From contig JBCBZT010000027.1 of NCBI GenBank assembly GCA_039815185.1, positions 32,001 through 96,000 on the forward strand: a stretch of DNA of 64,000 nucleotides. Reading direction: 5' to 3'. Both the position numbers and the translations under genes were made by a program. The notes under the pieces were generated by a model. That model searched no databases and was not told where the DNA came from. It worked only from the letters and a program-made list of their open reading frames with translations. This DNA is from Cyanobacteria bacterium P01_A01_bin.123. Lineage in GTDB: Bacteria > Cyanobacteriota > Cyanobacteriia > Phormidesmidales > Phormidesmidaceae. Shown one piece after another: positions 1,252 through 26,827 of this stretch; positions within the stretch are counted from its first letter, which is position 1, and each line of letters starts with the position of its first letter.

Positions 1252-1278
1252 GTTTGATCCATCTTCAATAGGAAACCG

Positions 1279-6650: not shown

Positions 6651-6926
6651 TTATTCGAGTGAACGGGGCGTGGTGCTATCTCTAGCGGGACTCTGACAAT
6701 TTAGTTGAAGTTTTTCAAGCTGAGAAGTCTTTACGGTGTTGACTACTGTTTCATTGTGGTTAGTACCACACATCCAAGAAGGACAACCGCCATCATAATT
6801 AACACCGCCCGCGATTCTCTGTAGGAGAGGCTCCGCCAGCGGCTTCAAATCTTTCTCACTCAGTTCAATAATCTGAACAGGCTTGGAAGCTGTCGGTTTT
6901 GGATTCCGTTTAGAATTTTTCTGCAT
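6651..6926 (-). CDS. RiPP precursor A (double-Gly leader, core VNYDGGCPSWMCGT, NHNET motif)
   Basis: AAGGAG RBS before ATG at 6926; IIELSEKDL...IAGG leader; NHNET shared with the precursors at 7520 and 8861. Confidence 0.8.
   Translation of the reverse strand: MQKNSKRNPKPTASKPVQIIELSEKDLKPLAEPLLQRIAGGVNYDGGCPSWMCGTNHNETVVNTVKTSQLEKLQLNCQSPARDSTTPRSLE
6816..6839 (+). repeat. 24-nt in-frame insertion in a HIP1-like site (SDR-like mini element)
   Basis: GCGAT|tctctgtaggagaggctccgccag|CGG; removal restores leader spacing DLKPIAGG like the paralogous leaders. Confidence 0.65.
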
Positions 6927-6956
6927 AGTTTTTCTCCTTAATTGAGACGTTAATTG

Positions 6957-7149
6957 GGTGTTGCTGAATCGAGAGATGAATTTGCCAAAGTGGTGCACTC
7001 TGCTTTGTCCCTTTTCATATATTCCTGGGGGGCTTTAAGCCCCCTTTCTGGTATGCCCCTTGGGCTATATTCTGGGGGACTTTGAAAGGTTTATTCCCCC
7101 AGAATGGGGGGGCTAGGGGGGTTAAGTCATACCGCTATTCAGCAACGCC
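6957..7149. mobile_element. MITE-like element with 13-bp terminal inverted repeats
   Basis: GGTGTTGCTGAAT at 6957-6969 and ATTCAGCAACGCC at 7137-7149 (12/13 complementary); internal G/C-run hairpin repeats; no transposase. Confidence 0.6.
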
Positions 7150-7159
7150 AGAAGTTGAA

Positions 7160-7399
7160 TCATCCCTCAAGACATCGTGGGCTACCAGACCAGCCCCCTG
7201 ATATTGCCAAAAGATCTGTTTCGCTTAGCGGCTCTAACTGGTTTTGCAGTAGTTGGTAGAGGCAATCATTAGAGAACTGATAGCCCTTTTCAGCGCCAGC
7301 GCTTTTAATCAGCGCGATCACTTCTAGTAGACTATTCGTTTCCTTGATTTTCTGTCGCAATTGCGCGTCACTGAGCAACGCTTTGATTTGGCTTAGCAT
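7160..7399 (-). CDS. Nif11-family RiPP precursor (core WSGSPRCLEG)
   Basis: AAGGAG RBS, ATG 7399; SDAQLRQKIK...AEKGYQFS...LSETDLLAISGG leader; Ser/Cys-containing 10-aa core. Confidence 0.85.
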   Translation of the reverse strand: MLSQIKALLSDAQLRQKIKETNSLLEVIALIKSAGAEKGYQFSNDCLYQLLQNQLEPLSETDLLAISGGWSGSPRCLEG

Positions 7400-7519
7400 A
7401 ATGCTTATCTCCTTTTGCAATGAAGGTAAAATTGTACAAATCTTGATTGATTTTGTGAGGCGCGATCGTGTGCTAAAGGCAGCGCGCGATCGCCCGCTCT
7501 GCTCTAGCCAAGACGCGAA

Positions 7520-7762
7520 TTATTCTTCACCAATGGGGTCATCATCCTCTTTGGATTTCCCACCACAGATGAGGGCTAAGTCATCTTCTGAGAGTTCTTG
7601 AATGGACTTGTTGTTGATAGCTTTACTCGCCATCGTTTCATTGTGGTTTGCCAAGTCAACACCTGCACCGACGATCGCTTCTAAATCCTTCTCCATCAAT
7701 TCAACAATTTCAGGGGATTTAGGGGGCGTTTTTTGAGGCTTTTGCTTTGATTTCTTCTTCAT
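7520..7762 (-). CDS. RiPP precursor B (two double-Gly leaders; cores VDLA-NHNET and KSKEDDDPIGEE)
   Basis: AAGGAG RBS; ELMEKDLEAIVGAG and ELSEDDLALICGG repeats; 5' region paralogous to precursor A. Confidence 0.8.
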   Translation of the reverse strand: MKKKSKQKPQKTPPKSPEIVELMEKDLEAIVGAGVDLANHNETMASKAINNKSIQELSEDDLALICGGKSKEDDDPIGEE

Positions 7763-7902
7763 GATTTTTTCTCCTTAATAGAAGGTTTTTTTCTAAGTCT
7801 AAGAATTGCCTTCTTGACTTGGTTTTACTGTATTAAATAATCGGGAATAAGTAGGGAAGAAAAATGCTTTTAGAGCAGGTTTTTTGAGCTATTTTTCCAT
7901 AT

Positions 7903-7944
7903 AAAAAGCGATCGCATTTAGCAAATCAATAATGCGATTGCTTT
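7903..7944 (-). terminator. Probable intrinsic terminator after the HDO-like gene
   Basis: AAAGCGATCGCATT...AATGCGATTGCTTT inverted repeat followed by a T-run on the minus strand. Confidence 0.5.
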
Positions 7945-8023
7945 CGTTATTTATGACAATGATTAATGATGATTGACCTGGCCACCAGCCATTGTCAATC
8001 CGAAATCCTTAACCTTATGCCGC

Positions 8024-8812
8024 CTAAAAAACCTTGCAACTAAGTGCAAGCATCTCATCTAGAAAACTGTCATAGGCATCCCAAACGGCCTGCATCTTTA
8101 AGTTGATTAGATCGTGGGGCGCACTCAGTTGTTCTAATCGGCGCGTTAACTGCATCACATCGCCAGCATGATCAGCCTCAACTGCGATATATCGCCTCAG
8201 CCAAGCTAAATCATAGGCAGAAATTGCCTGGGTTCGTTCGATTTGGGCTTGAATTGCTAATGCTAATTGATAGGCACAAATCTTGCCCGCGAGTAACGCC
8301 CCCAGGGCTAAGAACGGCTCTTGATCGGTGTAGTAACCTTCAAGTTGTTGCTTTAGATTTGTCCCTGGACTCTTAATCGCAACGGTATCAAACTGACTAG
8401 CTGGAACAGGTTGCAATCGCCGCCAGGGATTGAGGGCGTAATAAAGCCGATCAAACAACACGCGATGAATTCGTTCAGGCTTGCCATGGCCCAGCTCATC
8501 GTAGAGCTGCCGGACCAAAACACAGCTAATGATTTCATCGTCAATGTGGCAGAGCATCGTTGAGAGCCACTGGGCCATATTGCTGTGGACCTGCCGCAGA
8601 TTATGGAAAAGCAACCATAGGCTGGTGAGATCCAGCGGTTTGGCCTGGAGCCACTCAAAGTAAGGATGGGTGGCAACCTCCCTGTGCTCGAAGGACTTGA
8701 TCAGGATTTCTAAACTTTGGGGGTAATCCATAGACGGGTGCCCATTCATGAGCTGGCCTGTCACAACACCGGAGGGCTGGGGTTCAATTAGGGTTAAGGT
8801 TTGATGGGCCAT
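8024..8812 (-). CDS. Iron-containing redox enzyme family protein (heme-oxygenase-like / TenA-PqqC fold)
   Basis: HPYFEW, QLYDELGHGKPERIHRVLF, VEADH; AGGA RBS before ATG 8812 (track ORF extends to 8860). Confidence 0.75.
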   Translation of the reverse strand: MAHQTLTLIEPQPSGVVTGQLMNGHPSMDYPQSLEILIKSFEHREVATHPYFEWLQAKPLDLTSLWLLFHNLRQVHSNMAQWLSTMLCHIDDEIISCVLVRQLYDELGHGKPERIHRVLFDRLYYALNPWRRLQPVPASQFDTVAIKSPGTNLKQQLEGYYTDQEPFLALGALLAGKICAYQLALAIQAQIERTQAISAYDLAWLRRYIAVEADHAGDVMQLTRRLEQLSAPHDLINLKMQAVWDAYDSFLDEMLALSCKVF

Positions 8813-8860
8813 CTTGTTTTCCTGATGTGCAGATACGCGATTGATCTTTGGAGGGCACAA

Positions 8861-9319
8861 CTATTGCTCAATTCTGCTCATCATCGTTTCATTGTGGTTT
8901 AGGCCGCAGTTGTCAATCTCGCCACACTCATCTCCGCAACCACCACCTGCGATCTTTTCTAGATCTTCTTCACCTAGTTCAGCGATCTGAGCTGACCCGG
9001 ATTGAATAGATGCTGTTGTATTGACTATCGTTTCGTTATGATTAGCTCCTAACTCAGGGTCTGTACTATGACCAGAACCACTTGCGATCGCCGCTAAGTC
9101 TTCCTCACTTAGTTCAATGATTTGGACTGACTTAGATTGAGTGGTGGCTTGCAAATTTTTAACCGCATTAACCATCGTTTCATTATGGTTATAGCCTAAA
9201 GCACCTCCTGCAATTCCCTCTAGATCTTCTTCTGCTAATTCAATTAGTTTTTGTGGTGAGATTTGAGCAGCAGAGGGCTGTTTTTTAGGCTTGGTTTGAT
9301 GTTGTTTAAGAATTGTCAT
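8861..9319 (-). CDS. RiPP precursor C with three leader-core-NHNET cassettes
   Basis: ELAEEDLEGIAGG|ALGYNHNET, ELSEEDLAAIASG|SGHSTDPELGANHNET, ELGEEDLEKIAGG|GCGDECGEIDNCGLNHNET; start uncertain (9319, 9343 or 9376). Confidence 0.85.
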   Translation of the reverse strand: MTILKQHQTKPKKQPSAAQISPQKLIELAEEDLEGIAGGALGYNHNETMVNAVKNLQATTQSKSVQIIELSEEDLAAIASGSGHSTDPELGANHNETIVNTTASIQSGSAQIAELGEEDLEKIAGGGCGDECGEIDNCGLNHNETMMSRIEQ

Positions 9320-9393
9320 GGGTTTGTCTCTGTAGGGTTTCATAGATGTGTCGGCTGTGTGACACTCATGTCTCAAGCCTATTGAATTAGATG

Positions 9394-9407
9394 GTATTTG
9401 TCGCTAC
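9394..9407. promoter_or_regulatory. NtcA-type site GTA-N8-TAC
   Basis: GTATTTGTCGCTAC in the divergent promoter between precursor C and the STAND gene; no canonical -10 at 22 nt. Confidence 0.35.
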
Positions 9408-9641
9408 AAAAAAGTCACGGATTTAGTCATGTGACCTCATAAGCTATCCTGAGCTGGACCTTATTGATGGGAGATAACCCTGACAGAATCTGGCATCTAG
9501 ACATGCCTCAATCACAAAGAAAATTGAAAAAAAAATCAAGCAGAGCCCTGTTGGACAACTGCAACCTCATGTCATCTCATACAATCCTAGGGACGACTAG
9601 TGTTAGCCGTCTTCCTCCCGCTGTACCTCCGTTGCCCTAGA

Positions 9642-12600
9642 ATGGACCTTGAAACCATTCTCACCCTTGTGAATGATGCGATGTCTGCAAAGATTGGTAG
9701 ACCGCTGAATGATGCCGAGCGGGTGCTGTTCAAGGGGGCCTGGTACGGGCAAACCTATGGGGTCATTGCGGCTGAATCCGGCTATGCGTCCAGCTATCTC
9801 ACCCGAGTGGTGGGGCCAAAGTTCTGGAAAGATCTCAGTCAGACGCTGGATGAAAATGTCAGCAAGACCAGCTTTCGGCCTGTTATTGAGCAACGCTATG
9901 CCCAGATGGCAAGCAGGTCATCCCATGACACATTGCCTTTGCCGTCGATTTCGCCAACCGCTTCTCCGACCGCGATCGCTGCCTTTAGATCCAGCCAATT
10001 CCCCCAAATTGATTGGGGAGAAGCTCCCAATGTCTCTCACTTTTATGGTCGACAGACCGAACTTGAGACATTGATCCAATGGGTTGTAAACGATGGCTGC
10101 CACCTGGCGGCGATCTTAGGCATGGGGGGCATTGGCAAAACCGCCCTGACCGCTAAGTTCGTAGAAACGTTGGCAGAACAGACAGACTGTCCGTTCGCAC
10201 ACATTATTTGGCGATCGCTACGCAATGCCCCCTCTCTGGAGTCGTTGTTGGCAGAACTGGTGCCGTTTCTGTCCCATCAGCAGGCAACTGAACCCACGAT
10301 TCGGCAACTCCTGCAATGCTTGCAGGAGTCCCGCTGCTTGCTGATTCTTGATAACACGGAAACGATTTTGCAGTCAGGCAGTCAAGCCGGATATTATCGT
10401 TCGGGCTACGAGGACTATGGTGAACTGCTGCGAGTGATGGGTGAATTGCGTCATCAAAGCTGCCTGATTCTGACCAGCCGCGAGAAACCAGCTGAAATTG
10501 CGATGTTTGGAGGGTTGGAGTTGTCTGTGCGATCGCTCACCCTTAGCGGTTCGCTAGAGACAGCTTTGGCACTGGTTGACGCCACGGACTTAGTGGGCAC
10601 CGCCGAGCAAAAACAGGACCTCTGTAAACACTACGGATGCAGTCCGCTGGCCTTGAAGATTGTCGTCAGTTCGATTCAAGACTTATTTGAGGGCCATATT
10701 TCGCCGTTTTTAGCCGAAGAAACGATCGTCTTTAATGGCGTGCGTCGTTTGCTTGACCAACAATTTGAACGTCTTTCTGAGCTAGAACAGACCATCATGT
10801 ATTGGCTAGCCATTAATCGCGATTGGACCTCAATTTCAGAGTTCGCCACTGATATCCTGCCTAAGGTCGCCCGGTCTCAGTTATTGGCCTCTTTGGAATC
10901 GCTCAGTTGGCGATGTCTCCTTGAGACGGCTTCGCCAACGCTGATCGAAAAACAATCCGGCAAATATACACAACAACCTGTCGTCATGGAGTACTTCACC
11001 GAATCCCTGACGCAGCAGATTGCTCAAGAACTGAGCAATCAAGAGTTCTCACTATTGACCCACCATGCACTACTCAAAACCACGGCAAAAGACTTCGTCC
11101 GTGACAGTCAATGCCGATTGATACTAGAGCCCATCCTGGATAATTTGCAAACCCGGCTGCGATCGCCCTCAGCGTTAGCGGGTCACATCCAGGAAATTTT
11201 AGAAACCCTCCGCACCAAAGACGCTTATCGCCTGAGCTATGCAGGGGGGAACTTACTCAACCTGTGCCGCCAACGTCAACTTGATATCACTGGCTATGAC
11301 TTCTCTAGACTGGCTATCTGGCACGCTTGTCTTCAAGATGTTAACCTGCGCCAGGTCAATTTTGCCCAGGCAGAATTTGCCCAAACTGCCTTTGCCCAAA
11401 CCTTTAGCAGTATTTTAGCGATCGCTTTTAGCCCCGATGGTGAGCTAATAGCGACAGGAGATAACAATCTTGAAATTCGCCTATGGCGGGTAGTCGATGG
11501 TCAACTCCTGTTAACGTTGCAAGGACATATGGACTGGGTGCGGACTGTCGCGTTTAGTCCCGATGGGCAGACGCTGGCCAGTGGCAGTGATGACAACACG
11601 ATACGCCTATGGGATGTGCAAACCGGGAAATCTCTTAAAACCCTGGAAGCCCATACAGGCCGAGTCTGTGCCGTCATGTTTAGTCCGAATGGCCTTACCC
11701 TAGCCAGCAGCAGCGAAGATCAAACCCTGCGCTTGTGGGATATCCGTAGCGGTGAGTGCCTGAATGTGTTGACAGGCCATACTCAACAGATCTGGTCTGT
11801 TCAGTTTGACGCTGAAGGCAAACGACTGGTCAGCGCAGGGGAAGATAATACTATCAAGCTCTGGGATGTGCAGACTGGCCATGGTCTCAAAACCCTGAAA
11901 GGGCATACCAATTGGATCGGGTCGGTTGCTTTTAGCCCGGATGGGCAACTGGTAGCAAGCGGCAGTCATGATCAAACAGTGCGTCTTTGGGATGTTGGGA
12001 CTGGGCAATGCCTTAAAACCTTGAGCGGTCACACCAACTGGATTTGGACTGTAGCTTTCAGCCCAGATGGGCAGATCCTCGCTAGTGGCAGTGAAGATCG
12101 TGCAGTGCGGCTGTGGGATGTTGATACGGGCCAATGTCTCAAGATTCTAGAAGGGCATACCCATCGAGTATGGGCCATTGCTTTCAGTCCTAATAATGCA
12201 ATGCTGGCCAGTGGTGGCGGCGATCAGACCGTGCGCTTTTGGGAGATATCTCAATTAGGGGCGGTGCTGTCCTATCCAGGAGTTGGTTCAGATAGCGGTT
12301 CAACTAAGCCACAACTCATTTCTGGTCAGTGCTTGAGAACACTGCAAGGCTATACCCGTCAGGTGTGGACGGTGACCTTTAGTCCCGATGGGCAGTCTCT
12401 TGCCAGTGGCGGTGACGAAACGTTTATTCGGCTCTGGCAGGTTGATAACAGCCAATGCTACAAAACCTTAACCGGTCATACCCATCGCGTCACTGCCGTT
12501 GCCTGGAGCCCCGATGGTACGATGCTGGCTAGTTGTGGGGAAGATCAAACCATTCGACTCTGGAATGCGCACACCGGGCAATGCCTTAAAACCTTGAGCG

Positions 12601-13376
12601 GGCATACCAAGCAACTCTGGTCCGTGGCCTTTAGCCCCGATGGTGCCCTCCTGGCCAGTGGGGGGGAAGATCAAACAATCAAATTGTGGCAGGTTGAAAC
12701 AGGAGACTGCTTAAGAACCATTGAAGGGCATACCAACTGGATCTGGACCCTCGAATTCAGTCCTACTGCCCCATTGTTGGTCAGCAGTAGTTTTGACCAC
12801 ACCGTGAAACTCTGGGATATCCAAACCGGCGATTGTGTCAGAATCCTGGCAGGTCACCAGGGCTCGGTAATGGGCGTGGCTTTTAGCCCCGATGGCACCC
12901 GCCTGGCCAGTGGCAGCATGTACGATCAGACCGTCCGAATGTGGGATGTGCAGACAGGAGATTGCTTAAACGTTTTGACGGATCAGCTGGTTATGTGTCT
13001 TGCCTTCTCTCCACCAAACAGCGCATCATCCTCAACGCAAGCCTCCATTCTCGCCGTAGGGGGGGTGGATCAGAGCTTAAAGTTTTTGCATCCTGACACT
13101 GGCAAAGGGATCAGCCTGCCGCAAGCCCACCAGCGTTGGCTCTTTGACCTGGGATTTAGTCCAGATGGTCAAACCCTGGCCAGTAGTAGTGCCGATGAGA
13201 CAATTAAGTTGTGGGATGTGAATACAGGAGAGTGCCTGAAAACCCTCAGACCCGATCGCCCCTACGAAGGTATGAACATCACTGGGGCAATTGGTTTAAC
13301 CCAAGCCCAAAAGGCGGCTTTACAAAGCTTGGGAGCAATCGATCAAGACGAAAATGCAGGTGCTGTCCTCCAATAA
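9642..13376 (+). CDS. HTH - NB-ARC (STAND NTPase) - pentapeptide - WD40 repeat protein
   Basis: N-terminal HTH-like region ([12 protein letters not shown]...GPKFWKDLS), P-loop GMGGIGKT, Walker B LLILDN, many GH...SPDG..LASGS.D.T.RLWD repeats. Confidence 0.92.
10915..10938 (+). repeat. 24-nt in-frame insertion in a HIP1 site (SDR-like mini element)
   Basis: GCGAT|gtctccttgagacggcttcgccaa|CGC; removal restores perfect GCGATCGC and protein WRSLIEK. Confidence 0.75.
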
Positions 13377-13424: not shown

Positions 13425-16400
13425 TTACTCCCAAAGCAACACGGAAGGCAGTTCATCCTGGGCTAACCGCAACAGTTCATAACCAATCCCAGTGGTGCCT
13501 TGGAAAAAGCCAGGGTTAAAGACAGAATTGGGCAGGTTAGCAAACAATTGGTATGCGCCGGATTGGTTGGCGCGGGCAACCACGGCAGCAGCTTTTTGTG
13601 AAGCAGCTTGTCGCCAATCTGGGCGATTGCAGCGTTGGGCTCCTACTAAAAGGACTTCAGCCACACCCAAATTACCGCAACAGAGATGATCAATGCCTTT
13701 TAGGCCTTGTTGTTGGGTAGTTTCTAGGGCAATTTGCAGGTCTTGCACCAGGGCTTCTGTCGGCCAAACATCCAGGCTACCCAGGCGTCCTAAGCCAATG
13801 CCAGCCGCGCCGTGGCACCATTGCACCGGAAAGGTAGGGCGACTTTCTGGATTGAGGTCGCGCAGGTCAGGCCAGTTTGCCTGAGTAGGAGAAAACACAC
13901 TGCGTTCGTAGGCCATCCCCTCTAGGGCGGCTTCTCGATAGTCTGGGTCATCGGTAATGGCGTAGAGGCGCAAGAGGGCGTAGGCAATCCCAGTGGCCCC
14001 ATGGGAGAAACCCGTCAGGGGTTTTTCGGCCAAGTTTTTCCAGGCTTTGGGGCCTGACGCTGGGTGGGTTTGTTGGCTGAGCAGGTGTTGTCCACAGGCG
14101 ATGGCTTTTTCTAAAACGGTGATCTCTCCTGTCACCTGATAGAGCGACAGCGATCCTAAAATGCTGCCCGCCGCACCGCTGATGATGTCCAAGGCTTGGT
14201 CAGCGGCAATCATCTCTGGTGTGATCATGGTTGCCAGGGTTTGCGCCTCCGTCAGGAAGGTTTCATCTTCTAAAAACTGACCCACCTTCACAAAGGTATA
14301 GATCATCGCAGTGATGCCAGTGGCAATGCCGATGCCCATCCGTCGCGCAAAGCGTTGGCGCGCGTCTGAAGTCATGCTGTTCAACTGTCGCCGTAGGGGG
14401 TGCAACACTCGCAGGGTCAGATCGCGGTAATGGGGCTCCTGGGTAACGTGGTACAGCCCCGCCAGGAACAGCGCTACGCCACAGCGCCCATCGTAGAGAC
14501 TGTCATTGAGGAGCTGGAGTTGATAGCGATTAGCTTGGGGGACAAACCCCAGGCTGATCCAGTTGAGGCTGCCGTCGGTATCTTGCAAGGCTCTGACCTC
14601 AAGGTCGGCTGCGATCGCACGGGCAGCCTGGATGAGTTGTTCGCGACTGAGCAGGGGCAGCTCGTTTGCCTGCCAGGGCCGGGCCTCATCGACGGACGGT
14701 TGGGCCACCCTGGCATAAAAGGCTCCCTGGATAATAGCCACCTGCTGGGCCAGGTTGGTTTCATTCAGGGCCTGGATTTGTGAGATGACATAGTCATAGC
14801 TGGGGCGCTTAAAATACTGAGAAATGGTCTGGATGTTTCTCAAAATCAAAGCATCGTTGCTGGTATTGGCGGTAAAAAAAGGAATATCCAGCTGCTCCAT
14901 AGCCCGCAGCTCAGCCTGGACAATGGGCCAGGCATTGGGCTGTTGTTGAGCTAACACAAAAGCCCGACTGAGGTAGTCCAACTCAATGCTATAGTCCACC
15001 CCATGCTTGAGATGATCTGGTGTCCAGGCTTTATTTAACAGAATGTAGTAGATGCGAGTGGCGCGCATAATAAACCGCACCTGCTGATTTTGTAACCCTG
15101 CCAATGGCCCCCCGGCGGCCAGCAGCAGACTTTGCTGCTGCATCAGGAACCGATACATGCACTCAAACCCGGTCACAATATGGACTTGATAGTCGTTGGG
15201 TGACAGGGGCGTATCGCCCAAATGGGGCACATTCTTGGCAATGGGTGCGGTGACTGTCTCGGCGCGCAAATGCATGTCGTCGGTATTCACCGCCTGCCAG
15301 CGGAGCACCTTGCAGGGGGCGGGTTGTGGGTCAGTACTGCCCAGGCCACTGATGTCAAAGGCAAGCCGCTGATCGGGGCTAAAATCCCACTGGGGCAGCA
15401 ACCCTGTACGCAAGACAGAGTCGCCAAACAGCTGGGTAGATTCTGTCTCTAGGGCCAGGGCATCCGGTGAATTTTCGATCAGGTGGACATCGTGTTGCAG
15501 CAGAGATTCTATATCAATCAGCACTAAATGCTCACCGCTGGCGATCAGGTTTTCATGGTGGCAGTCGGTGCCCCGCAACACATAGATTAAGCACGACAAC
15601 ATGCCTGCCCGTTGGTAAAAGCGCTCAACGGCGGCTTCATCATGGCAGGGCAACTGTTCAACATATTCGACCCAGCCATATCCATCGCGATTAAGCACCT
15701 GGATGACTTTGAAATCGAGCAGTTGATTGTGTTGATTACACCAGGTCAGTAGATGATTCCAGGCCACCTCTAAACCGGAATCTTTGGGTTTGTAGACCAG
15801 TGTGAGGCCCGACTCAAAGGTGAGCAGCAGCACCGTACGCCCCTGGTTGTGCGGGTCAGACAGGGATGCCTGGAGGTCAGTCACTTTGCCCAGGGGCGCA
15901 TTCTGACACTCAGAGTTAGATGCTTGAGCCCCCCCTACCCCCCAATATGGGGTGTTGTTGAGGCTAAAATCTCCTGAGCTTGGAGAAAATCGCTGCTGAA
16001 TGTCAGTTTGGTCTTGGGCCAGCCGCTGGATGAATTCAGCCGTGGCATCGACCCACAGATCAACCGCCACCGCAATCAGCCGCCCCAGGACAGGATAGGT
16101 TTGCAAGAAACTGAGCAATCCATCTGCCAGTAAGTCCGTCACAAATTGATGGTACTGGGTTTGGCTATGACCTGTTTCAGCCTCTTCGATACCCAAAAGA
16201 TTCAGTAAGTTTTGCCCCAGAGATCGTCCTTTAGAAAACTCAAAATCGAGGGTTTTGTTAGAAATTTGGGTGAGCCGTTGCAACAGGCTACGTTCTAGCG
16301 TGGTGTAAGCTTTCTCTGAAAGCAGAGAAAGCGACAGGATCTTGCCAGTGAGTTGGGTCACTCCCAGGCGCGTGAGCAAGTTTTGTCTGGCGACTTGCAG

Positions 16401-17866: not shown

Positions 17867-19539
17867 GAGATCCCTCCTAGGGTTAAATACTGGGAGTTGG
17901 AACGGTCTGGGGTGGTTTGGTATAGATCATCAATCGCGGTCTGAAAATAAGCCTGAATTGCAGTACGGCGCAGCTTGCCATTGGCGGTGAGCAAGCCATT
18001 GGCCTGACTGAAGGGCTCACGGGTGAGGTAGAATTTGCGAATTTTTTGATAGTGGGGAACGGTCTCGTTGAAGTGGTGAATGGCGATCGCTAACGTAGAC
18101 TCATCGACTGAACCCGTAAGAATGGCACAGAGAAAGGGTCGCCCATGACCCACCAGCACAGCTTGTTCCATGCCGTCACAAGCCTCGATCAGTCGTTGTT
18201 CTAAGGGTTCTGGGGCAATGTTGTGGCCTGAGGTCGGCACCAAGAGATGTTTGAGACGACCAATGATCCGCCAATGACCTGAGGCACTGACTTCGGCTTG
18301 ATCACCGGTATGGAACCAGCCCTCGCGGATGACTTGAGCCGTTGCTGCTGGATTGTTCCAGTACCCGGCAAAGATATTGGGCCCCCGGCAAACCAGTTCG
18401 CCTTGCGGCGTTAAGCGCACTTCACAGTCTTGAATAGCATGACCGACGTAGCCCGGTATGGGTGATTGAAGGGGATCGAGGGTAACCAGACCTGTGGTTT
18501 CAGTGAGGCCATAGCCCTGGTAGATCGGGATGCCAATCATGGCAAACCAGCGTTGGGTTTCGATCCGCAAGGGGGCCGAGCCACAGATAATCAGTTGGAG
18601 ATGGGGGGCGATCGCCCGTTTGATTTGGGCCAATAGGGTTAGGCTCACGCCTTTAAAGATCAAGGCGTCAACCCAGCGGTGTCCTGTCAGCGAGCGGTCA
18701 TAAGCCTGCTGGCCAACTGTAAACAGCCATTGGGCAATACGCCCCTGCTGTTTTAAGGCTTGCTCAATGCCACTGCGGAACCGCTCCAGCACCATGGGCA
18801 CGGTCAAAAAGAACGCCGGATCGGCATAGCGGAGATCCGCTGCCAGATTGTCTAACTGGGTGCATAGGGTTAACGGACGCCCTTGATACAGCTGGGCCCA
18901 AAGGATGAGATGGGCGGGGGCAAAGCAAAAGGGTAAAAAGTGAAAGGCACCGCCTTTGTCGGTTGACGGCTGGGTTGCAGCTTCAAGCCGCTGGCTGATT
19001 AAGGGAATCATGTAGTCAAAGTTGGCGCGGGTGAGCATCACCCCCTTAGATGCCCCGCTAGTGCCCGAGGTATAGATCAAGGCGATCACTGCATCCGCTG
19101 GAATGGGGTAAGGCGCTGCCTGGGTGGGTTCAGCGTCAAATGCGTCATCGACTAAGGCGATCGCACCGGGAGTAAGCCAGATCTCCGTCATTGCTTCCCC
19201 AAGCGCTGAATCCCCGACCAGTAGCAATTTGGGTTGGCAGTCTGCCAGCATTTTGGCTAGTTCTGGCAGACTCTGGCGGCTATATAGCGGTACTACAATT
19301 GCCCCTTCTGCCAAAATCGCCAGCTCCAGGGCAACCCAGCGAGCTGAGTTGGGGGCCAGTAATGCCACGCGATCGCCGGGACATACCCCCTGATTTGCAA
19401 TAAAGGTACGGGCACGACGAATCTGCAGCGCTAACGCTGCCGCTGAGATATCGACCCATTGTTGATCATGGATTTCCCTGAGAATCGGTTGATTCTGCAG
19501 CTGATGTAAGTTTTGGACAATCGTTTCCAGAAAGTTCAT
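17863..19539 (-). CDS. Long-chain acyl-CoA synthetase-like AMP-binding protein
   Basis: IYTSGTSGASKG, QGYGLTET, WFHTGD, GHNIAPEPLE, LTANGKLRR; GGAG RBS before ATG 19539. Confidence 0.9.
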   Translation of the reverse strand: MNFLETIVQNLHQLQNQPILREIHDQQWVDISAAALALQIRRARTFIANQGVCPGDRVALLAPNSARWVALELAILAEGAIVVPLYSRQSLPELAKMLADCQPKLLLVGDSALGEAMTEIWLTPGAIALVDDAFDAEPTQAAPYPIPADAVIALIYTSGTSGASKGVMLTRANFDYMIPLISQRLEAATQPSTDKGGAFHFLPFCFAPAHLILWAQLYQGRPLTLCTQLDNLAADLRYADPAFFLTVPMVLERFRSGIEQALKQQGRIAQWLFTVGQQAYDRSLTGHRWVDALIFKGVSLTLLAQIKRAIAPHLQLIICGSAPLRIETQRWFAMIGIPIYQGYGLTETTGLVTLDPLQSPIPGYVGHAIQDCEVRLTPQGELVCRGPNIFAGYWNNPAATAQVIREGWFHTGDQAEVSASGHWRIIGRLKHLLVPTSGHNIAPEPLEQRLIEACDGMEQAVLVGHGRPFLCAILTGSVDESTLAIAIHHFNETVPHYQKIRKFYLTREPFSQANGLLTANGKLRRTAIQAYFQTAIDDLYQTTPDRSNSQYLTLGGIS

Positions 19540-19591: not shown

Positions 19592-21019
19592 CTAGGCATA
19601 TTGCATCAGCAACTGAGTCGTGGTTGCCGATAGTGGGGGCAAATAGGCGTACCAAGCAGGCGATCGCTCAATTTGAGGAAAATCTGGATACACACGAGCC
19701 ACTTCGCCCATAAAGTCGCGCCCCATTTGTCCCATCAACCGCAGTTGCCGAACCACGGTTTGGGCAATCCTTTGGGCAATCGCTTCCCGGTCTTGATCCA
19801 GGCGATGCAGCATAGGTAGCAATTTCTCTCCCAGACCGGGATCGTCAACCTCCAGCAGTAGGTCGAGATGGTGGCGATCGCTCATCAAATTGCGAATGCG
19901 TTCATCCATCGTCACGCCTACAGAGGGCACCAGCCCCGGCATAGAGGTAACAATCGCGTGGAAACGGGAACTCACAAGAAATGCGCTCTGGCGCAAAATA
20001 CCGACCAGTTCATGCAGGGTGTATTGATCACTGATGAAACAGGGCGCTGGTGATGAAAGCTGGGCATTGAGGTCATAGCAAGCCCGTCGATCCAGGCGCT
20101 CCATACCCACCACCACGGTGAAAATATCCCGCTGCTGGCTAAAGGCATTCACGGCCTGGGCCAACCCCTGAATATAGGTGCGATATTGACGATCCGCTGT
20201 GGCTGAATGGTGGTGAAAATAAAGGGATTTGTAATGCTGTTCCCGATATTTGCCAGTCAAACCCTGGTGAATAAACTTGCGCAGACTGGGCTTGATTGGC
20301 CACCAAAAGGGATTGATGGGACAAAGGGTTAGAACCGGACGAGTTCCATCCCAACCAGCCTGTTTGAGTAAATCGACGCCCCGTTGCGGCAAGTCGGGTT
20401 CAAACGTCCAGGCGGTGTCGGCTCCCGCCGTGCTGCGAATCCTTAACTGTTGACTGAGTAAGGTTTGAGAGGGCTGATTTCGGCAAAGGATGAGCGAATT
20501 TTGGCATTGGCGGCGAACGAAATGTTGCAAACTGGCATTCATCGCCCCTGCTTCGGCCCCGTAACCAACGCTGAGTTTTTCCTCAATGGCAGCCAACCCC
20601 AAGGCGGCTGACATCATTGTGGACAAACTATCGGCAAATTTTGATTTAAACATCGAGCCCTCACAAGCAATCACCCCATGGTGTTGAGGGCACTCGCGAG
20701 CAAGAAACTGCGGAAAAATATGGGGCAATCGCACCTGCTTGGCACCCTGAAAATAGTCTGCCGTTAGAGTCGGATCAAGGGTTGTCACCGTTAGGTCTGT
20801 GGATTGACCCAGGAGGTGCTGGAGTTGCCGCACAATCTCACTAACCCGCACATCAGCCCCGGTATTACGAGCCCCGTTGTAACCTGCTAGCAAGAGTTTG
20901 AGTGGTTTTCCCGGTCGCCATTGTTCTTGGGGCCATCCCAGGGTGCGCTTGATGCGAGTCGCTTGGGTATAGCCTGTGCAGAGGAGTTGTAGGGTTTGGT
21001 CAAGGTCAAGGGGGTTCAT
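19592..21019 (-). CDS. Polysaccharide pyruvyltransferase-like protein
   Basis: LLAGYNGARNTGAD N-terminal motif, GADTAW, VSSRFHAIV; probable ATG at 21019. Confidence 0.7.
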   Translation of the reverse strand: MNPLDLDQTLQLLCTGYTQATRIKRTLGWPQEQWRPGKPLKLLLAGYNGARNTGADVRVSEIVRQLQHLLGQSTDLTVTTLDPTLTADYFQGAKQVRLPHIFPQFLARECPQHHGVIACEGSMFKSKFADSLSTMMSAALGLAAIEEKLSVGYGAEAGAMNASLQHFVRRQCQNSLILCRNQPSQTLLSQQLRIRSTAGADTAWTFEPDLPQRGVDLLKQAGWDGTRPVLTLCPINPFWWPIKPSLRKFIHQGLTGKYREQHYKSLYFHHHSATADRQYRTYIQGLAQAVNAFSQQRDIFTVVVGMERLDRRACYDLNAQLSSPAPCFISDQYTLHELVGILRQSAFLVSSRFHAIVTSMPGLVPSVGVTMDERIRNLMSDRHHLDLLLEVDDPGLGEKLLPMLHRLDQDREAIAQRIAQTVVRQLRLMGQMGRDFMGEVARVYPDFPQIERSPAWYAYLPPLSATTTQLLMQYA

Positions 21020-21138: not shown

Positions 21139-22281
21139 TCAATCGACCAAAGCATAACCAGTGTCAGTTTCAGGCCAGGGCTGATAAGGGAACTGGCAGT
21201 TGTGTTCTACTAAAAAGCGATGGAGGGGGGCTGCGTAGGTAATGAAGGGGGATGGAGCGGTTCCGAGTTCTTGGGTAATGCGGGTGTTGTCAAAAACGGT
21301 ATTGAACGTCAAGTAGGGCATAAATACTTTGAGTCGGGTGGCTGATCGGGCGATTCCCCACTGACGGGGAGTGGCGGCTAAGGCTTGGAGTAACCATGTC
21401 AAAGGCGATCGTAGTGGTGGCAAAAATAGGGGGGATACCCCTTGGGTGGCCGTGGCTAGACATTGGACAATCTGTTGGTAGGTGGGAGAGTGTATGCCTG
21501 CACTCAGGTGATAAATGGTGTGGGAGAGTTGTGCTTTTTGATGCAGGGTGGCGATCGCTTGGCCGACATAATCGGCAGGCACAATGTCAATTTGCCAGTC
21601 TGGCTGTAGCGGTATCACCCCAACTTGGTTGAGTAGGGCAAAGGCTCTGGCTGTGTCGAACTGAGTTGTTTGGGGAAAGCGGCTATCCCCGAGGACTGTA
21701 CTAGGGCGAAAGATGACATGGGGAACATCTGGCAATAATTCTTGGATGAGGTGCTCACAGAGTTTTTTGGTGGCGCCGTAGGGGTCGTAGTCTGGTCTGT
21801 CCCATTGAATCGCGTCAGTCTCGGTCACGACTTCGTTTTGGCGAATTCCAGCAACGGAGGTAGTGGAGATAGCACTGAAGCGGCGGAGGCCATGATCGCA
21901 GTGAGCGGCGCGGGCCAATTTCAAGACGGCAAGCGTACCGCGCACATTTACGTTGTGACACGCTTGAAGTGATTTGCGATTCAAGATCGCGGCGGCATGA
22001 ATCACAGACTCTGTGGAACCGACTAGTCGATCCCAGTTCTGCAGGGACAATCCCAAGCGGGGTTGGGTCATGTCTCCTAAATAGAGATCTATACGGTTGA
22101 GTGCCTGATGAAATTGCGTCGGGGTCATGTGCAATTGGAAGGCCTGCCACAACCGCGATCGCGCTGCATCAGTAGAGGTTGCCCGGACTAATAGGGCCAG
22201 GCGATCGCAGGTCGTATTTAAGAGTTCATTGGCAACGTAGGCACCGATATAGCCCGTTGCACCGGTCAATACAATCGTCAT
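21139..22281 (-). CDS. Extended SDR / fatty acyl reductase-like oxidoreductase
   Basis: LTGATGYIG, HAAA, NVRGT, YGATK, FRPSTVLGDS, DIVPADYV. Confidence 0.88.
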   Translation of the reverse strand: MTIVLTGATGYIGAYVANELLNTTCDRLALLVRATSTDAARSRLWQAFQLHMTPTQFHQALNRIDLYLGDMTQPRLGLSLQNWDRLVGSTESVIHAAAILNRKSLQACHNVNVRGTLAVLKLARAAHCDHGLRRFSAISTTSVAGIRQNEVVTETDAIQWDRPDYDPYGATKKLCEHLIQELLPDVPHVIFRPSTVLGDSRFPQTTQFDTARAFALLNQVGVIPLQPDWQIDIVPADYVGQAIATLHQKAQLSHTIYHLSAGIHSPTYQQIVQCLATATQGVSPLFLPPLRSPLTWLLQALAATPRQWGIARSATRLKVFMPYLTFNTVFDNTRITQELGTAPSPFITYAAPLHRFLVEHNCQFPYQPWPETDTGYALVD

Positions 22282-22294
22282 GGGATGCTCACAT

Positions 22295-23752
22295 CTATAG
22301 CTCAGGCTGTAAGGCGTTCAATAAAGTCCGTTTGGGCAAGGTGCATTTGAGCTGCTGCCGAGTATCAACCAAAAACCCTGTCCGCAGAAAATACGCGAAA
22401 TAGGTGTGTAGGAGCTGCTCATTAACGCTGGGACAGTAGATAGCCGCTCTATCTAGGACGGTTTGGGTCTGTTGGCTATCGAATTTGGGGCGTCTAGCCT
22501 GCTGATATAACTCTGGTAAGGTCAGATCTGTGTCTGGCAGTTGCCGTCGAAAGAATGGCCGCAGCGGCACTAGGGGATTGTCCTGGGAATAGAGTTGGTG
22601 GAGCTGATCGAGCCAGTCATGGTAAGCAATTTGCTTCACAGCAAACCCAAAGGATTGTATCCAGCTAACCAACTGATGCCAGGGGTAGGGTTTGGGATTG
22701 GTGAGATGGAAGGTTTGACCGATGGCGTCTGGCTGCTGTGACAGATAAATAATGCTGCGGCTGACATAGTCTACCGGGGCTAAATCGAGCTGGTAATCCA
22801 GGTCAGGGGCAGTGCCCATCTGCAGACAACCCTTGATCAGGCGACAGATCAGATCATCGGTGTTGACGACCCCTGTTTGGCTGTGGCCAGAAATAAAAGG
22901 CGCTCGGTAAATGCAGACGGGCAAGCCGCGATCGCGGGCGCTGATCATTAGTTTTTCGGCGACCCACTTACTTTGGGAATAGCCCAGGCCAATGCCCTCG
23001 CTATGGATTAACGGGTCTGACTCCAGGATTTGTTTGTGGGCATAGGCCGGGGAGTCAAACACCGCAACGCTGGAAACATAGTGAACGGGTGCGTCCTGAC
23101 TGCAACTCGCCAACCGTAAGACTTCCTGGGTACCTTGAACATTCACTGATCGCAAGCGGGCGTAATCATAAACGTAGTTCAACAATGCGCCACTGTGGTA
23201 AATGCAGCCAATTTGATCCGCGAGGTGCTGAAATTGCTCGGGTGAGAGTCCGAAGTAGGGCTGACCTAAATCGCCAATGACGGGCATAATGCGATCGCAA
23301 TTAGTCTCATGCCAGAGACCATAGGCTTGGAGATTAGTCTGAATACGCTGCTTTCCTGAAGACACATCAGCAGCTCTCACCAGGCAGTAACAGTTAGCCT
23401 GAGTCCGCTGCAGCAGCTCTTGGAGGATAAAAGCCCCTAAGAACCCAGTAGCTCCGGTCAAGAAAATTGCCGATGGGCGGTGCTGCGAGTCTGGGGGCGT
23501 TGCTTTGGGTTGAATACTGGAATCCAGCACAACTTCTGAGGTTAAATCTCCCAGGAAAAAACCGTCTGATTCGGTTGCAATGGCAGACTGCTGTTGAACT
23601 AATGCCAAAAGTGTGGGTTTATGTTGGCGTAGCGTCTGTTGCAGCTTTGGGGTTAAAACCCCTTTGGGGGCTTTAATGTGGAGCTGATCCTGCTTAGCCC
23701 AGAGCGTTGCCCCCCGTTGGCGGAGAGCACTTAGCAATTGATCAGGGGTCAT
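22295..23752 (-). CDS. Stand-alone thioester reductase with TubC-N-type docking domain
   Basis: N-terminal LRQRGATLWAKQDQLHIKAPKGVLT...HKPTLLALV; R-domain FLTGATGFLG, GYSQSKWVAE, PVDYV. Confidence 0.88.
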   Translation of the reverse strand: MTPDQLLSALRQRGATLWAKQDQLHIKAPKGVLTPKLQQTLRQHKPTLLALVQQQSAIATESDGFFLGDLTSEVVLDSSIQPKATPPDSQHRPSAIFLTGATGFLGAFILQELLQRTQANCYCLVRAADVSSGKQRIQTNLQAYGLWHETNCDRIMPVIGDLGQPYFGLSPEQFQHLADQIGCIYHSGALLNYVYDYARLRSVNVQGTQEVLRLASCSQDAPVHYVSSVAVFDSPAYAHKQILESDPLIHSEGIGLGYSQSKWVAEKLMISARDRGLPVCIYRAPFISGHSQTGVVNTDDLICRLIKGCLQMGTAPDLDYQLDLAPVDYVSRSIIYLSQQPDAIGQTFHLTNPKPYPWHQLVSWIQSFGFAVKQIAYHDWLDQLHQLYSQDNPLVPLRPFFRRQLPDTDLTLPELYQQARRPKFDSQQTQTVLDRAAIYCPSVNEQLLHTYFAYFLRTGFLVDTRQQLKCTLPKRTLLNALQPEL

Positions 23753-24087
23753 AGGACGATTTCCTCCTCCTCCATTTCCCTAGCGTTGCCACAATATTGT
23801 GCTAGGGCCGCGATCGTGGGATAGGTGTAGGGTAGGGTGGGCTCTAGTTTATGGCCTAGCCAGTTTTCTAAATCTCCGGCCATACCAAAAACCACGACTG
23901 AATCCAAGCCATAACTGTCAAAGGTGGCATGACTGTCGATGTCATCGTTGGTCACCTCCAAAAGTTCAGCCAGGTAGGCAACTAACCACTTCTGAATGTC
24001 ATCGGGTGTTTGAGACGGGAGACTAGCACGATGGTTGTTAGCCAGCGGAGAAACCTGTTGAGGACTTTGAAGTTGTAAGCGATTCAT
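23749..24087 (-). CDS. Acyl carrier protein
   Basis: FDSYGLDSV Ppant motif, YPTIAALA; acidic C-terminal tail EMEEEEIVL; ATG 24087. Confidence 0.9.
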   Translation of the reverse strand: MNRLQLQSPQQVSPLANNHRASLPSQTPDDIQKWLVAYLAELLEVTNDDIDSHATFDSYGLDSVVVFGMAGDLENWLGHKLEPTLPYTYPTIAALAQYCGNAREMEEEEIVL

Positions 24088-24157
24088 GATCTTAATGTTT
24101 GGAGCATTGGGTCTAGACAATGAAAATTGGGTATTGTGGTTGCGAATTCGTTGGTTA

Positions 24158-26827
24158 TCAGACTCGGCATTTCGCAGTTTCCACGGTTGCCGCCGAAGGC
24201 ACTTTGACATCCCACACCAGACCTAACCGAGTTAATGCCCGAATCAGCCAACCGCCAATGTCAATTTGCCACCATGCCAGTCCGAAAAGTGCTGAATAGG
24301 CAAAGGCGTGATGATTGTTGTGCCATGCTTCTCCCAGCGTAGGGATTGCCAGCCAGACATTGTTAGTACTCTGCTCTCGGGTCACAAAAGGACGTTGACC
24401 GAAGCAATGACAAATAGAATTGATGCTGAACGTGGATTGTTGCACAAGCCAGATACGAACTAGCCCACCCCATAAAAATCCTTCCCATGCCCCCGACCAT
24501 GAGACACTGAGTCCACCCCCGAGGAGGGTAGGGATAATCAGCCCTAATGCCGTCCAGAGATAGTATCTGCTACTCAGCCAATTGACTAAGGCATCTTGCA
24601 TCAGATCCTTAGCAAAGGCATGAGTATTGGTGATTTCTGGAATTAGAATCCACCCACTATGCGCATGCCATAAACCCTGGATCAATCCTCGCAATCCTGG
24701 CCCACTGAGATGGGGAGAATGGGGATCACCAGGACTATCCGTATAGCTATGGTGCCGCCGATGCTGCGCAACCCAATAAATCAAAGGGGCTTGGGCTGCC
24801 ATTGATCCGAGAATGGCCAAGCTGGTTTTGACCGACCGATGGGCTTTGAACGCTCTGTGGGCAAAGTATCGGTGGAAACCTACCGTGATGCCAACCATGG
24901 TGGCCAGATACATGCTGCCTAAAAGACTCAGGTCTAAACCGCTAACGCCCCACTTCCAGCTCCACGCCAATGCCACGATGCAGCCCAGTAAGGGCAGCAA
25001 ATTCGTAACCATGAGGTGATGCCGCTGGCGCTGTACGAGATGGCTATGCTTAAACGTGAGGGGTGCTTTTTTGGGTGATGTCTGTAAAGCGCCTGGTGCT
25101 CCAGCAATGCTCCGTAAGTCATTGGTCAAGAAGGCGGCCCGACAAGCCCGTCGCTGAATTTTGCCGCTCGATGTCTTGGGAATACTGCCGGGTCGCACCA
25201 AGACAGCACGGTGCAAATCTAGGGCATGGTGAGTTGCGATCGCCTGCCGGATTGCAACCATCACTGCCTTGACATCCAGTTTCCTCAAGTGGCTACGTTC
25301 TATTTCTTGGACAACCACTAACCGCTCTGCCCCCTCAACATCAATGGCAAAGGCTGCACCTGCATTGGCTTGCAAAGCTGGATGACTGGCCGCTACTGTG
25401 TGCTCAATATCCTGGGGATAGTGGTTTTGCCCCCGGATGATGATCAAATCTTTGAGTCGCCCCGTTACGAAGAGTTGGCCATTGAGCTCAAACCCTAAAT
25501 CGCCGGTGCGGAGGAAGGGGCCAACGCCCGTATCCGCGAGATCAGCCTGGAAGGTTTGGGCCGTGGCTTCAGGCTGTTGCCAATACCCCTGAGCCACACT
25601 CGGCCCTGAAATCCAGATCTCACCGACTTGGCCGATAGAACATGGGGTTAGGGTTTCGGGATGCACAATGTAAAGTTGATGGTCAGGGGTAGTTTGGCCA
25701 CAGCTAACAATGGTGCGATCGCTAGCGGATACTTCAACCGCCGGCACCACCTGATGCTGCTCTAAGGCAGCTCCATCAACCGGTTGCACAATCGGCTGGG
25801 TGCCCTTGTGGCCACCAGCTATCAGCAGCGTAGCCTCCGCCATGCCATAACACGGATAAAAAGCCGTCTGTCGAAAACCATAGGGGGCAAAGGTTTGACT
25901 AAATTGCGATAACGTCTCTGGCCGAATGAGCTCGGCTCCCGTAAAGGCAATATCCCAATTACTCAAATCGAGATCGGCCATCTGGTCAGGTCGAATTTTA
26001 CGGACGCAGAGGTCATAGGCAAAATTAGGCCCACCACTGATGGTGGCTCGATGCTGAGAAATTGCATGCAGCCAGCGCATCGGTTTTTGCAAAAACATTA
26101 CTGGCGACATTAGCGTTATCGGGAAACCCGCGTAGAGGGGTTGGAGCACGCCGCCAATCAGCCCCATGTCGTGATACGGTGGCAACCAAATGACACCCCG
26201 GCTTTCCGAGGTATGTCCAAAGGCTTGCTGAATTCCCTGCAAGTTGTTGAGCAAATTGCCATGACTCACCATAACGCCCTTGGGTTTGCCAGTGGACCCA
26301 GAGGTATACTGCAGAAACGCTAAGGTGTCGCTGGTGATCGGCGGCGCTTGCCAATTAATTGCTTGCTCAAGGGCCAGCTGATCCGTGGAGAACCATGCCA
26401 GGGTGGCAAGATCAGGAACCTGAGCGGCTTGGTGACTCATGGTGGCCCAGGCTGCGGTAGTCGTCAAGGCCACTGCCGCTTCAGCGTCGGCTGCGATCGC
26501 CCTAAGTCTTTCCAGGGTTTGATTGCGGCGTGGAGGATAGGCTGGCACCGGGATCAGGTTGGCGTATAAGCAGCCAAAGAAGGCGGCAATGAATGCTAAC
26601 CCTGGCGGATAAATCAACAATGCCCGAGTCCCGGCTGGGTATTGAGATTGGAGTTGAGCTGCGATCGTTCGGGCTTGCAGATCCAGTGCTTGATAGGTCA
26701 AAGATTCAGACTTTGCTTCCCCATCTGTCAAAAAGGTATAGGCAATTTGATCGGGTTGGTGCAAAGCGCGATCGCTCAAAAGTTCAATTAAGGTTGAGTA
26801 ATGCATAAGATCAAACTCGCTATCCAA
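24158..26827 (-). CDS. Fatty acyl-AMP ligase fused to a membrane acyl desaturase
   Basis: FAAL motifs FLQYTSGSTG, WLPPYHDMGLIG, YGMAEATL, PKTSSGKIQR; C-terminal His boxes GFHRYFAH, HRRHH, HNNHH; possible ATG at 26806. Confidence 0.92.
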   Translation of the reverse strand: MDSEFDLMHYSTLIELLSDRALHQPDQIAYTFLTDGEAKSESLTYQALDLQARTIAAQLQSQYPAGTRALLIYPPGLAFIAAFFGCLYANLIPVPAYPPRRNQTLERLRAIAADAEAAVALTTTAAWATMSHQAAQVPDLATLAWFSTDQLALEQAINWQAPPITSDTLAFLQYTSGSTGKPKGVMVSHGNLLNNLQGIQQAFGHTSESRGVIWLPPYHDMGLIGGVLQPLYAGFPITLMSPVMFLQKPMRWLHAISQHRATISGGPNFAYDLCVRKIRPDQMADLDLSNWDIAFTGAELIRPETLSQFSQTFAPYGFRQTAFYPCYGMAEATLLIAGGHKGTQPIVQPVDGAALEQHQVVPAVEVSASDRTIVSCGQTTPDHQLYIVHPETLTPCSIGQVGEIWISGPSVAQGYWQQPEATAQTFQADLADTGVGPFLRTGDLGFELNGQLFVTGRLKDLIIIRGQNHYPQDIEHTVAASHPALQANAGAAFAIDVEGAERLVVVQEIERSHLRKLDVKAVMVAIRQAIATHHALDLHRAVLVRPGSIPKTSSGKIQRRACRAAFLTNDLRSIAGAPGALQTSPKKAPLTFKHSHLVQRQRHHLMVTNLLPLLGCIVALAWSWKWGVSGLDLSLLGSMYLATMVGITVGFHRYFAHRAFKAHRSVKTSLAILGSMAAQAPLIYWVAQHRRHHSYTDSPGDPHSPHLSGPGLRGLIQGLWHAHSGWILIPEITNTHAFAKDLMQDALVNWLSSRYYLWTALGLIIPTLLGGGLSVSWSGAWEGFLWGGLVRIWLVQQSTFSINSICHCFGQRPFVTREQSTNNVWLAIPTLGEAWHNNHHAFAYSALFGLAWWQIDIGGWLIRALTRLGLVWDVKVPSAATVETAKCRV

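Follow-up and report, generated by a model that had tools for sequence, protein, structure and literature searches.

Two described kinds of peptide that are ribosomally synthesised and then modified post-translationally (RiPPs) are among those closest to the locus considered here. The prochlorosins are made by class II LanM synthetases, ProcM and SyncM, which carry a CCG zinc motif and act on precursors with Nif11-type double-glycine (GG) leaders and hypervariable cores containing Cys, Ser and Thr (PMC10783134). The selidamides, represented by KspN, PhaN and NpuN, likewise combine cyanobacterial LanM with Nif11-type precursors, and are defined by a GNAT enzyme acting on Lys or ornithine (PMC8784127, PMC13647313). 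The lipo-RiPP families presented in the cited parts of PMC13647313 and 10.1101/2023.10.25.564083 are all GNAT-based.

Here we analyse a 64,000-nucleotide stretch of DNA (hereafter, the window), positions 32001-96000 of contig JBCBZT010000027.1 (C70 of cyanobacterial genome G000), where a first-pass annotation had proposed a hybrid lipid-RiPP system that includes a LanM gene. The proposed gene run is a mosaic made up of three modules: a fatty acyl-AMP ligase (FAAL)-desaturase fusion with an acyl carrier protein (ACP); a block consisting of a reductase, a short-chain dehydrogenase/reductase (SDR), a pyruvyltransferase-like protein (PyrT), a ligase and a Rieske oxygenase; and a ProcM-like LanM travelling with Nif11 precursors. 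We estimate a probability of about 0.55 that the modules of the island to which the window belongs work largely in parallel, producing lanthipeptides, peptides of a repeat family marked by the motif NHNET and paired with a tetratricopeptide repeat (TPR) protein, and a separate lipid.

The eight-gene run and the origins of its modules

Eight minus-strand genes form a single run in the window, and their open reading frame (ORF) coordinates and families agree with the first-pass annotation. The FAAL fused to a membrane FA_desaturase (24158..26806, with the longest ORF starting at 26827) matches Pfam AMP-binding and FA_desaturase and has three His boxes. It is followed by the ACP (23749..24087, likely start 24087; Pfam PP-binding, GLDS motif); a thioester reductase with a TubC_N docking domain (22295..23752; TIGR01746, 357 bits against a cut-off of 213); an extended SDR (21139..22281; NAD_binding_4); PyrT (19592..21019; Pfam PS_pyruv_trans); a FadD11-like acyl-adenylating ligase (17863..19539); the Rieske oxygenase (16802..17866; identified by Pfam and motifs); and LanM (13425..16817; TIGR03897, 995 bits against a cut-off of 304). 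The SDR and the ligase are of the type found in elb-like lipid operons, the ligase by its family match and its recurrence next to PyrT. The FAAL, desaturase, ACP, reductase, SDR, Rieske oxygenase and LanM all retain intact catalytic motifs. Start and stop codons overlap at ACP/reductase and ligase/Rieske (both -4, ATGA) and at Rieske/LanM (-16), as previously noted, whereas the remaining junctions, with homologue-supported starts, are gaps of 70, 13, 119 and 52 bp.

LanM aligns with LicM2 over the dehydratase and cyclase domains and has the CCG zinc motif described for ProcM-type enzymes (PMC10783134) in the form HLCCG. It thus combines full length, the CCG site and a Nif11 precursor with Cys and Ser/Thr in its core, as expected of a class II, ProcM-type synthetase. 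LanM matches are present in 9 of 151 family genomes, three of which, G001 (Leptothoe spongobia), G119 and G084, have orthologues (67-69% identity); five LanMs with 40-44% identity were not accepted as orthologous. In G119 (100% complete), the gene order is exporter-menD-menE-Nif11-LanM-NHNET precursor-TPR, and in G084 (97% complete), it is Nif11-LanM followed by nonribosomal peptide synthetase (NRPS) and graspetide genes. With the window proteins as queries, no orthologues of PyrT, SDR or Rieske were found anywhere in G119 or G084, and NHNET cassettes are absent from G084. Each of the three LanM orthologues is preceded by Nif11 genes, and Cys together with Ser/Thr is present in all 12 Nif11 cores of the four genomes. 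The G000 island has only one such core, WSGSPRCLEG, free of Lys and encoded in two near-identical genes. The copy in the window (7160..7420, minus strand; TIGR03798 E 2e-5, below the cut-off) is the most likely LanM substrate. An NRPS with the module order A-T-C-A-T-R lies directly after LanM in G001 (L098:6370-12702) and G084 (L270:13348-19650), the two being 78% identical; no orthologue of it is present in the G000 island.

The proposal that LanM is translationally coupled to the lipid enzymes holds insofar as the 16-nt overlap with the Rieske gene is real, but this overlap is not conserved. The three LanM orthologues share an upstream leader, TTTAGAGGACAGCTAAA, that has been lost in G000, where a non-homologous, Pro-rich tail of the Rieske protein runs across the conserved LanM start. 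The junction is therefore lineage-specific, and could still couple translation in this genome. At its other end, LanM converges head-on with a STAND (NB-ARC/NACHT)-WD40 regulator gene (9600..13376, plus strand), one of three in the island, which is divergent from the precursor genes; the latter must therefore be transcribed separately, from a promoter of their own. A promoter and terminator scan remained at chance level (7 found versus 11.1 expected; 18 versus 15.0).

To trace the lipid block, GTDB genomes were scanned for PyrT, and the best 80 of 167 relatives were kept, with up to 10 kb, often less, on each side. L. spongobia (locus L017) is the only cyanobacterium among these 80. The usual PyrT neighbours are the SDR (in 78 of the 80 loci), ligases (66), HAD-fatty acyl reductase (66), enoyl-CoA hydratase (65), ACP (58), diacylglycerol kinase (48), acyltransferase (45) and CDP-alcohol transferase (29); LanM or HDO genes were detected in none of these loci, and NHNE in one. 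The SDR, PyrT and ligase trace back to an operon of the glycerolipid/ether-lipid type that is found in Myxococcota and Acidobacteriota. A quick tree, built from the query and 41 of the 80 loci, places the two cyanobacterial PyrT copies in one clade (support 100) nested within a mostly Myxococcota group (support 94); these copies therefore have one origin. The cyanobacterial block lacks the lipid-acceptor genes of the parent operon. Among the hallmarks of elb-like clusters, a reductase, an adenylation enzyme and an ACP are present as separate genes, and the acyltransferase and HAD phosphatase are absent from the run. A GT-B fold is predicted for PyrT by its structural model (pLDDT 91), which shows TM scores of about 0.5 to GT-B glycosyltransferases and UDP-GlcNAc 2-epimerases; a sequence search of PDB found no relative of the protein.

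The other lipid genes have different distributions. The reductase is 61% identical to its L017 counterpart, which lacks TubC_N. A close Rieske orthologue (70%) was found in 1 of 150 family genomes, and ten relatives at 42-46% were rejected as orthologues: none adjoins LanM, and eight adjoin a classical SDR, forming a conserved gene pair in these family loci (L100-L108). Desaturase relatives occur in 14 of 400 other cyanobacterial genomes. Eight of the 10 loci opened for these relatives contain FAAL/desaturase/ACP cassettes, and none of the 10 contains LanM, the reductase, SDR, PyrT, ligase or Rieske genes. FAAL-desaturase fusions recur in other organisms, and the FAAL-desaturase with its ACP is a cassette that commonly stands alone in cyanobacteria. 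Candidate polyyne or polyene lipid loci are L310, L314, L315 and L316, whose FAAL/ACP cassettes include two to four desaturases.

The best support for a lipid-peptide link comes from the L. spongobia locus (G001, 75% complete; also labelled G149 with the same coordinates and counted once). The related island there comprises exporter, GRAS and dehydrogenase genes, a precursor of nine cassettes, men genes together with DXS, and DUF2515; next come reductase-SDR-PyrT-ligase-Rieske at 61-70% identity to G000, precursors, a methyltransferase gene, nine genes of Nif11 type, LanM, an NRPS that ends in a reductase, and a TPR gene. LanM lies about 9 kb after the Rieske gene, and the genes at the PyrT/ligase and ligase/Rieske junctions are 294 and 131 bp apart. 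No FAAL-desaturase or ACP was found at this locus, and no FAAL-desaturase fusion in the 75% complete genome with the window query.

NHNET precursors, their predicted TPR partner and the wider island

As initially annotated, four precursor genes and an HDO-like gene lie beyond the STAND gene, all on the minus strand; three of the precursors are of the NHNET type, and the fourth is the Nif11 precursor discussed above. An NHNET cassette consists of a leader (ELxEEDLxxIxGG), a variable core and the NHNET follower. The layout GG leader-core-NHNET is repeated three times in the precursor at 8861..9319, occurs once, followed by a C-terminal GG-KSKEDDDP cassette, at 7520..7762, and appears as a single CxxxxCGxNHNET cassette at 6651..6926. 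The HDO-like gene is located at 8024..8812. Much of this group falls within a 2.36-kb duplicated segment (6846..9195), which is 92% identical to C70:20228-22579, outside the window.

The window is only part of a larger island, containing 5 of the 30 NHNE[T/M] cassettes of the contig; the remainder of the G000 genome has two such motifs. In total, 27 NHNET cores were parsed, three remained unparsed, and one wrap-around artefact row was dropped. At least two Cys are found in 12 of the 27 cores and Lys in one, and the cores have no conserved acyl acceptor. The cassette profile matched only G000 among 401 cyanobacterial genomes, and 156 clusters in a 50%-identity library; among the 150 clusters listed, 143 contain NHNE and 114 at least two copies. 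A DNA motif scan of metagenomes yielded at least 80 loci, of which 31 were judged real by eye and 49 set aside as chance. The real loci listed fall into two groups, one with GG leaders and the other with hydrophobic N-termini, encoded beside genes for an extracytoplasmic function (ECF) sigma factor and a Ser/Thr kinase. In loci L132-L205, the signal-peptide group, the multi-core CxxxxCGxNHNET precursors are probably secreted, with the TPR gene downstream and the ECF sigma and Ser/Thr kinase genes divergent upstream. A TPR gene is present in 21 of the 31 real loci listed and reaches at least 150 bits in none of the 49 chance loci. LanM occurs in two of the 31 (in L139, the gene upstream of it is unrelated and divergent) and lipid genes in none, most of these loci being short.

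No match of at least 0.9 to the three-cassette precursor was found in the ESM Atlas, and a cluster look-up returned no names for five precursor relatives. A family model for NHNET precursors may exist, given that the precomputed Pfam accession PF28158 is attached to two of them (P0001 and P0005); the Pfam scan used here did not return PF28158. In the literature searched, we found no description of the cluster or of the NHNET family; supplementary cluster lists (of PMC8784127 or of lanthipeptide surveys) could include the locus.

In the G000 island, a gene for a 358-aa TPR protein directly follows a 65-aa NHNET gene. Members of this kinesin-light-chain-like family are 35-66% identical to the G000 copy, which matched TPR families alone, with no recognised output domain; orthologues are present in 5 of 173 family genomes. 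In complex predictions, residues 80-357 of the G000 TPR protein with the last cassette of the three-cassette precursor scored 0.73, compared with 0.02 for the best control; 116 of 157 solved pairs attain the score mark, as do 2 of 215 mismatched ones. At least 49% of contacts are shared between runs, with a partner pLDDT of at least 39, and the interface is confined to peptide residues 27-37, CGLNHNETMMS. Positions of the TPR interface are invariant in 18 of 42 cases, versus 61 of 218 across that stretch of the protein. The TPR protein is accordingly predicted, on the basis of these models, to bind the NHNET motif in its groove.

Because NHNET cassettes are recurrently fused to GRAS (N-terminally in G000, L001:15291-16703, and in P0080) and to an HDO relative (P0076), HDO and GRAS are the likeliest tailoring enzymes. 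The GRAS fusion presumably parallels precursor-methyltransferase fusions such as those of borosins. In G119, GRAS and the Leu-dehydrogenase-like gene are on another contig, without precursors. The HDO of the window is probably degenerate, with K and Y replacing the E and H that are found in its closest relative, P0076, and in the HDO-cupin protein of the island at two putative iron-ligand positions, assuming that the roles of the six ligands are those of CADD-type enzymes; it matches Pfam Haem_oxygenas_2, and a sequence search of PDB found no relative of it.

The upstream half of the island (C70:2573-27117) encodes an MvdD-like ATP-grasp enzyme, the TPR protein, the HDO-cupin protein, a 481-aa multi-cassette precursor, two STAND regulators, a Leu/Trp-dehydrogenase-like protein, the GRAS protein and many short GG-leader peptides. 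Short GG-leader peptides ending in (R/K)PKEDDDP or PINIVRNG occur at L001:16891-19572 and L099:15341-15748; the (R/K)PKEDDDP type, which is also kept in G001, is a candidate substrate for the ATP-grasp enzyme. A two-ORF transposase at C70:27232-28650, along with a fragment 82% identical to the cupin part of the HDO-cupin gene, marks the border between the two halves of the island. A second men operon (part of menD, menB, menE, GST and menA) with DUF2515 occupies 64..6620 on the plus strand and reaches upstream of the window (C70:29235-33251); its counterpart in L017 lies directly upstream of the lipid block, and G119 keeps only menD and menE of this set. On the other side of the run, a low-GC segment (29597-33870) carries a BrnT toxin gene, followed downstream by a small ORF that is probably the antitoxin, as well as an orphan of 431 aa and two genes with TIR domains, and is a possible defence island.

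Possible functions of the lipid block

Under the parallel operation of the modules that we favour, LanM would dehydrate Ser/Thr and form thioether rings in the Nif11 precursors, yielding prochlorosin-type lanthipeptides. Multi-cassette precursors would be cut at double-glycine sites, probably by a C39 exporter encoded on another contig (closest copies on C92); the gene pairing points to a TPR protein that would hold the NHNET follower in its groove, with HDO and GRAS tailoring the peptides. The FAAL would load a fatty acid onto the ACP, the desaturase would add an alkene or alkyne, and the reductase would release the chain as an aldehyde or alcohol, which the SDR, ligase and GT-B protein would then join to a polar, non-peptide acceptor, as in the parent glycerolipid-type operon, and the Rieske enzyme would oxidise the lipid product. 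A rearrangement in this lineage would have placed LanM behind the Rieske gene. Whether TPR-NHNET recognition defines a RiPP class, with the TPR protein reading a repeated follower motif, we regard as close to an even question.

Several observations weigh against this interpretation. In both cyanobacteria having the lipid block, it resides within a RiPP-rich island, and it has stayed intact over about 35% protein divergence between G000 and G001; in L017, precursor genes directly follow the Rieske gene. The acceptor-handling genes of the parent operon have been lost, so the block may now use a different acceptor. RiPP clusters often include optional tailoring genes, and therefore the loss of the block in G119 and G084 does not show independence; furthermore, the G084 contig extends no more than 2 kb upstream of LanM. 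Of the 31 metagenomic NHNET loci, 4 extend over at least 10 kb, and a small GG-leader ORF lies about 1 kb from one of the FAAL/desaturase/ACP loci, L311. As for the TPR protein, no NHNE cassette adjoins its orthologues in G551 and G555, and solved kinesin-light-chain TPR-peptide complexes exist, so that the TPR-NHNET prediction may pass by likeness.

Compatible with parallel modules, and possible with the odds against it, is a broader role of LanM in which it also modifies CxxxxCGxNHNET cores, perhaps through a bond between Cys and the NHNET Thr, which would make the cyanobacterial NHNET peptides lanthipeptides. Promiscuity is a property of ProcM-type enzymes (PMC10783134), the cassettes have ELxxEDL..GG leaders, and LanM adjoins NHNET precursors in G119, L139 and L208. 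Against these associations, G084 retains LanM in the absence of any NHNET cassette, LanM is rare in the metagenomic NHNET loci listed (2 of 31), and the signal-peptide group keeps CxxxxC with no LanM in view, which fits a disulfide.

The original hybrid interpretation, in which the block was co-opted to equip the island's peptides with an acyl or alkyl chain, unsaturated and attached by a non-GNAT route (an amide formed by the ligase, the action of the GT-B protein, or a released aldehyde undergoing reductive amination), appears unlikely. It stands insofar as the block shares an island with LanM and precursors in the two cyanobacteria that have it, is co-directional with precursors in L017 and with LanM in G000, and has lost its native lipid-acceptor genes. 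The reported absence of a GNAT from the locus was also borne out: none of 60 PF00583 matches is on contig C70. Both block copies, however, have one origin, the junctions are not conserved, and LanM persists in two of four genomes without PyrT, SDR and Rieske orthologues, and in L139 behind the unrelated divergent gene. Co-occurrence of lipid genes with LanM, suggested in the first pass as a test, was found in the L. spongobia island and was lacking in G119, G084 and all 31 metagenomic NHNET loci listed, most of them short. The only ACP and FAAL of the run have no counterpart at the L017 locus; Lys is present in one of 27 NHNET cores and absent from the G000 Nif11 core.

Less likely still, the lipid block, the second men operon and DUF2515 could together make an alkylated or oxidised naphthoquinone-type small molecule. 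The L017 block directly follows menA-DUF2515 in the same direction, whereas the men genes of G000 and the block there have opposite orientations. The complete men-DUF2515 set is found in the same two genomes as the block (DUF2515 has an orthologue in 1 of 401 cyanobacterial genomes, G000 itself, and in L017), and neither menC nor menH could be recognised there. G000 has separate menA, menB and menD copies elsewhere, but a single menA was found in G001 (75% complete), so the operon may be housekeeping there. Improbable, too, is the composite in which NHNET peptides are a new RiPP class whose TPR protein presents cores to HDO, GRAS (methyltransferase-like) and LanM, and an ether-lipid fragment adds an unsaturated alkyl chain by a non-GNAT route via the GT-B protein or ligase.

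The locus among known systems

The LanM/Nif11 and FAAL cassettes are of known kinds, whereas the repeat-peptide NHNET family with its predicted TPR partner is apparently undescribed. Unlike the prochlorosin systems, the G000 island has a single Nif11 core, set amid lipid, men and NHNET-TPR modules. The defining GNAT of the selidamides, acting on Lys or ornithine, is absent from the contig, as is Lys from the Nif11 core, and no arginase, which an ornithine acceptor would need, was found among the ORFs scanned. The first-pass attribution of selidamide acylation to a YcaO-related enzyme was an error: acylation is by a GNAT (PMC8784127, PMC13647313), and YcaO is absent from the main text of PMC8784127. 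Goadvionins, lipolanthines and lipoavitides (10.1101/2023.10.25.564083) also have RiPP genes clustered with acyl-chain genes, but rely on N-terminal acylation by a GNAT and on polyketide synthase (PKS) or FabH genes for building the chain, whereas the present locus has a class II synthetase and no GNAT, PKS or FabH. A ligase- or GT-B-based route, if true, would be a new peptide-lipidation tool, a reading that the comparative data make less likely.

With elb-like ether/glycerolipid clusters (10.64898/2026.06.23.733905), the resemblance lies in the parent operon, with its HAD protein, fatty acyl reductase, adenylating enzymes, ACP, acyltransferase, diacylglycerol kinase and CDP-alcohol transferase; the cyanobacterial block keeps three genes, has a thioester reductase in place of the HAD-fatty acyl reductase and an added Rieske gene, and lacks the acyltransferase and HAD. 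The GT-B protein offers a handle on this uncharacterised, widespread lipid operon. The FAAL-desaturase is probably JamA/JamB-like. The order FAAL, membrane desaturase, ACP is shared with the JamABC starter cassettes (PMC10088813); here, the first two are fused, and a stand-alone reductase follows the ACP, with no PKS or NRPS.

The NHNET-TPR pair is a small two-gene system for possible new RiPP substrate recognition or peptide signalling in Gram-negative bacteria, in which leader-core-follower repeats are paired with a conserved TPR protein across distant lineages. Its closest parallel is the RRNPP pairs (PMC10075063), with which it shares a peptide gene adjoining that of a 320-380 aa TPR protein for which binding of a short motif is predicted. 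The 358-aa TPR protein, encoded beside a peptide gene, falls within the 250-500 aa range of RRNPP receptors, whereas in place of Sec-exported propeptides of 10-100 aa, the multi-cassette precursors range up to about 500 aa (481 aa in G000) and, in cyanobacteria, have GG leaders. The TPR protein also differs from RRNPP receptors in its kinesin-light-chain-type repeats and in having no recognised output domain, and that of the second NHNET group has a hydrophobic N-terminus.

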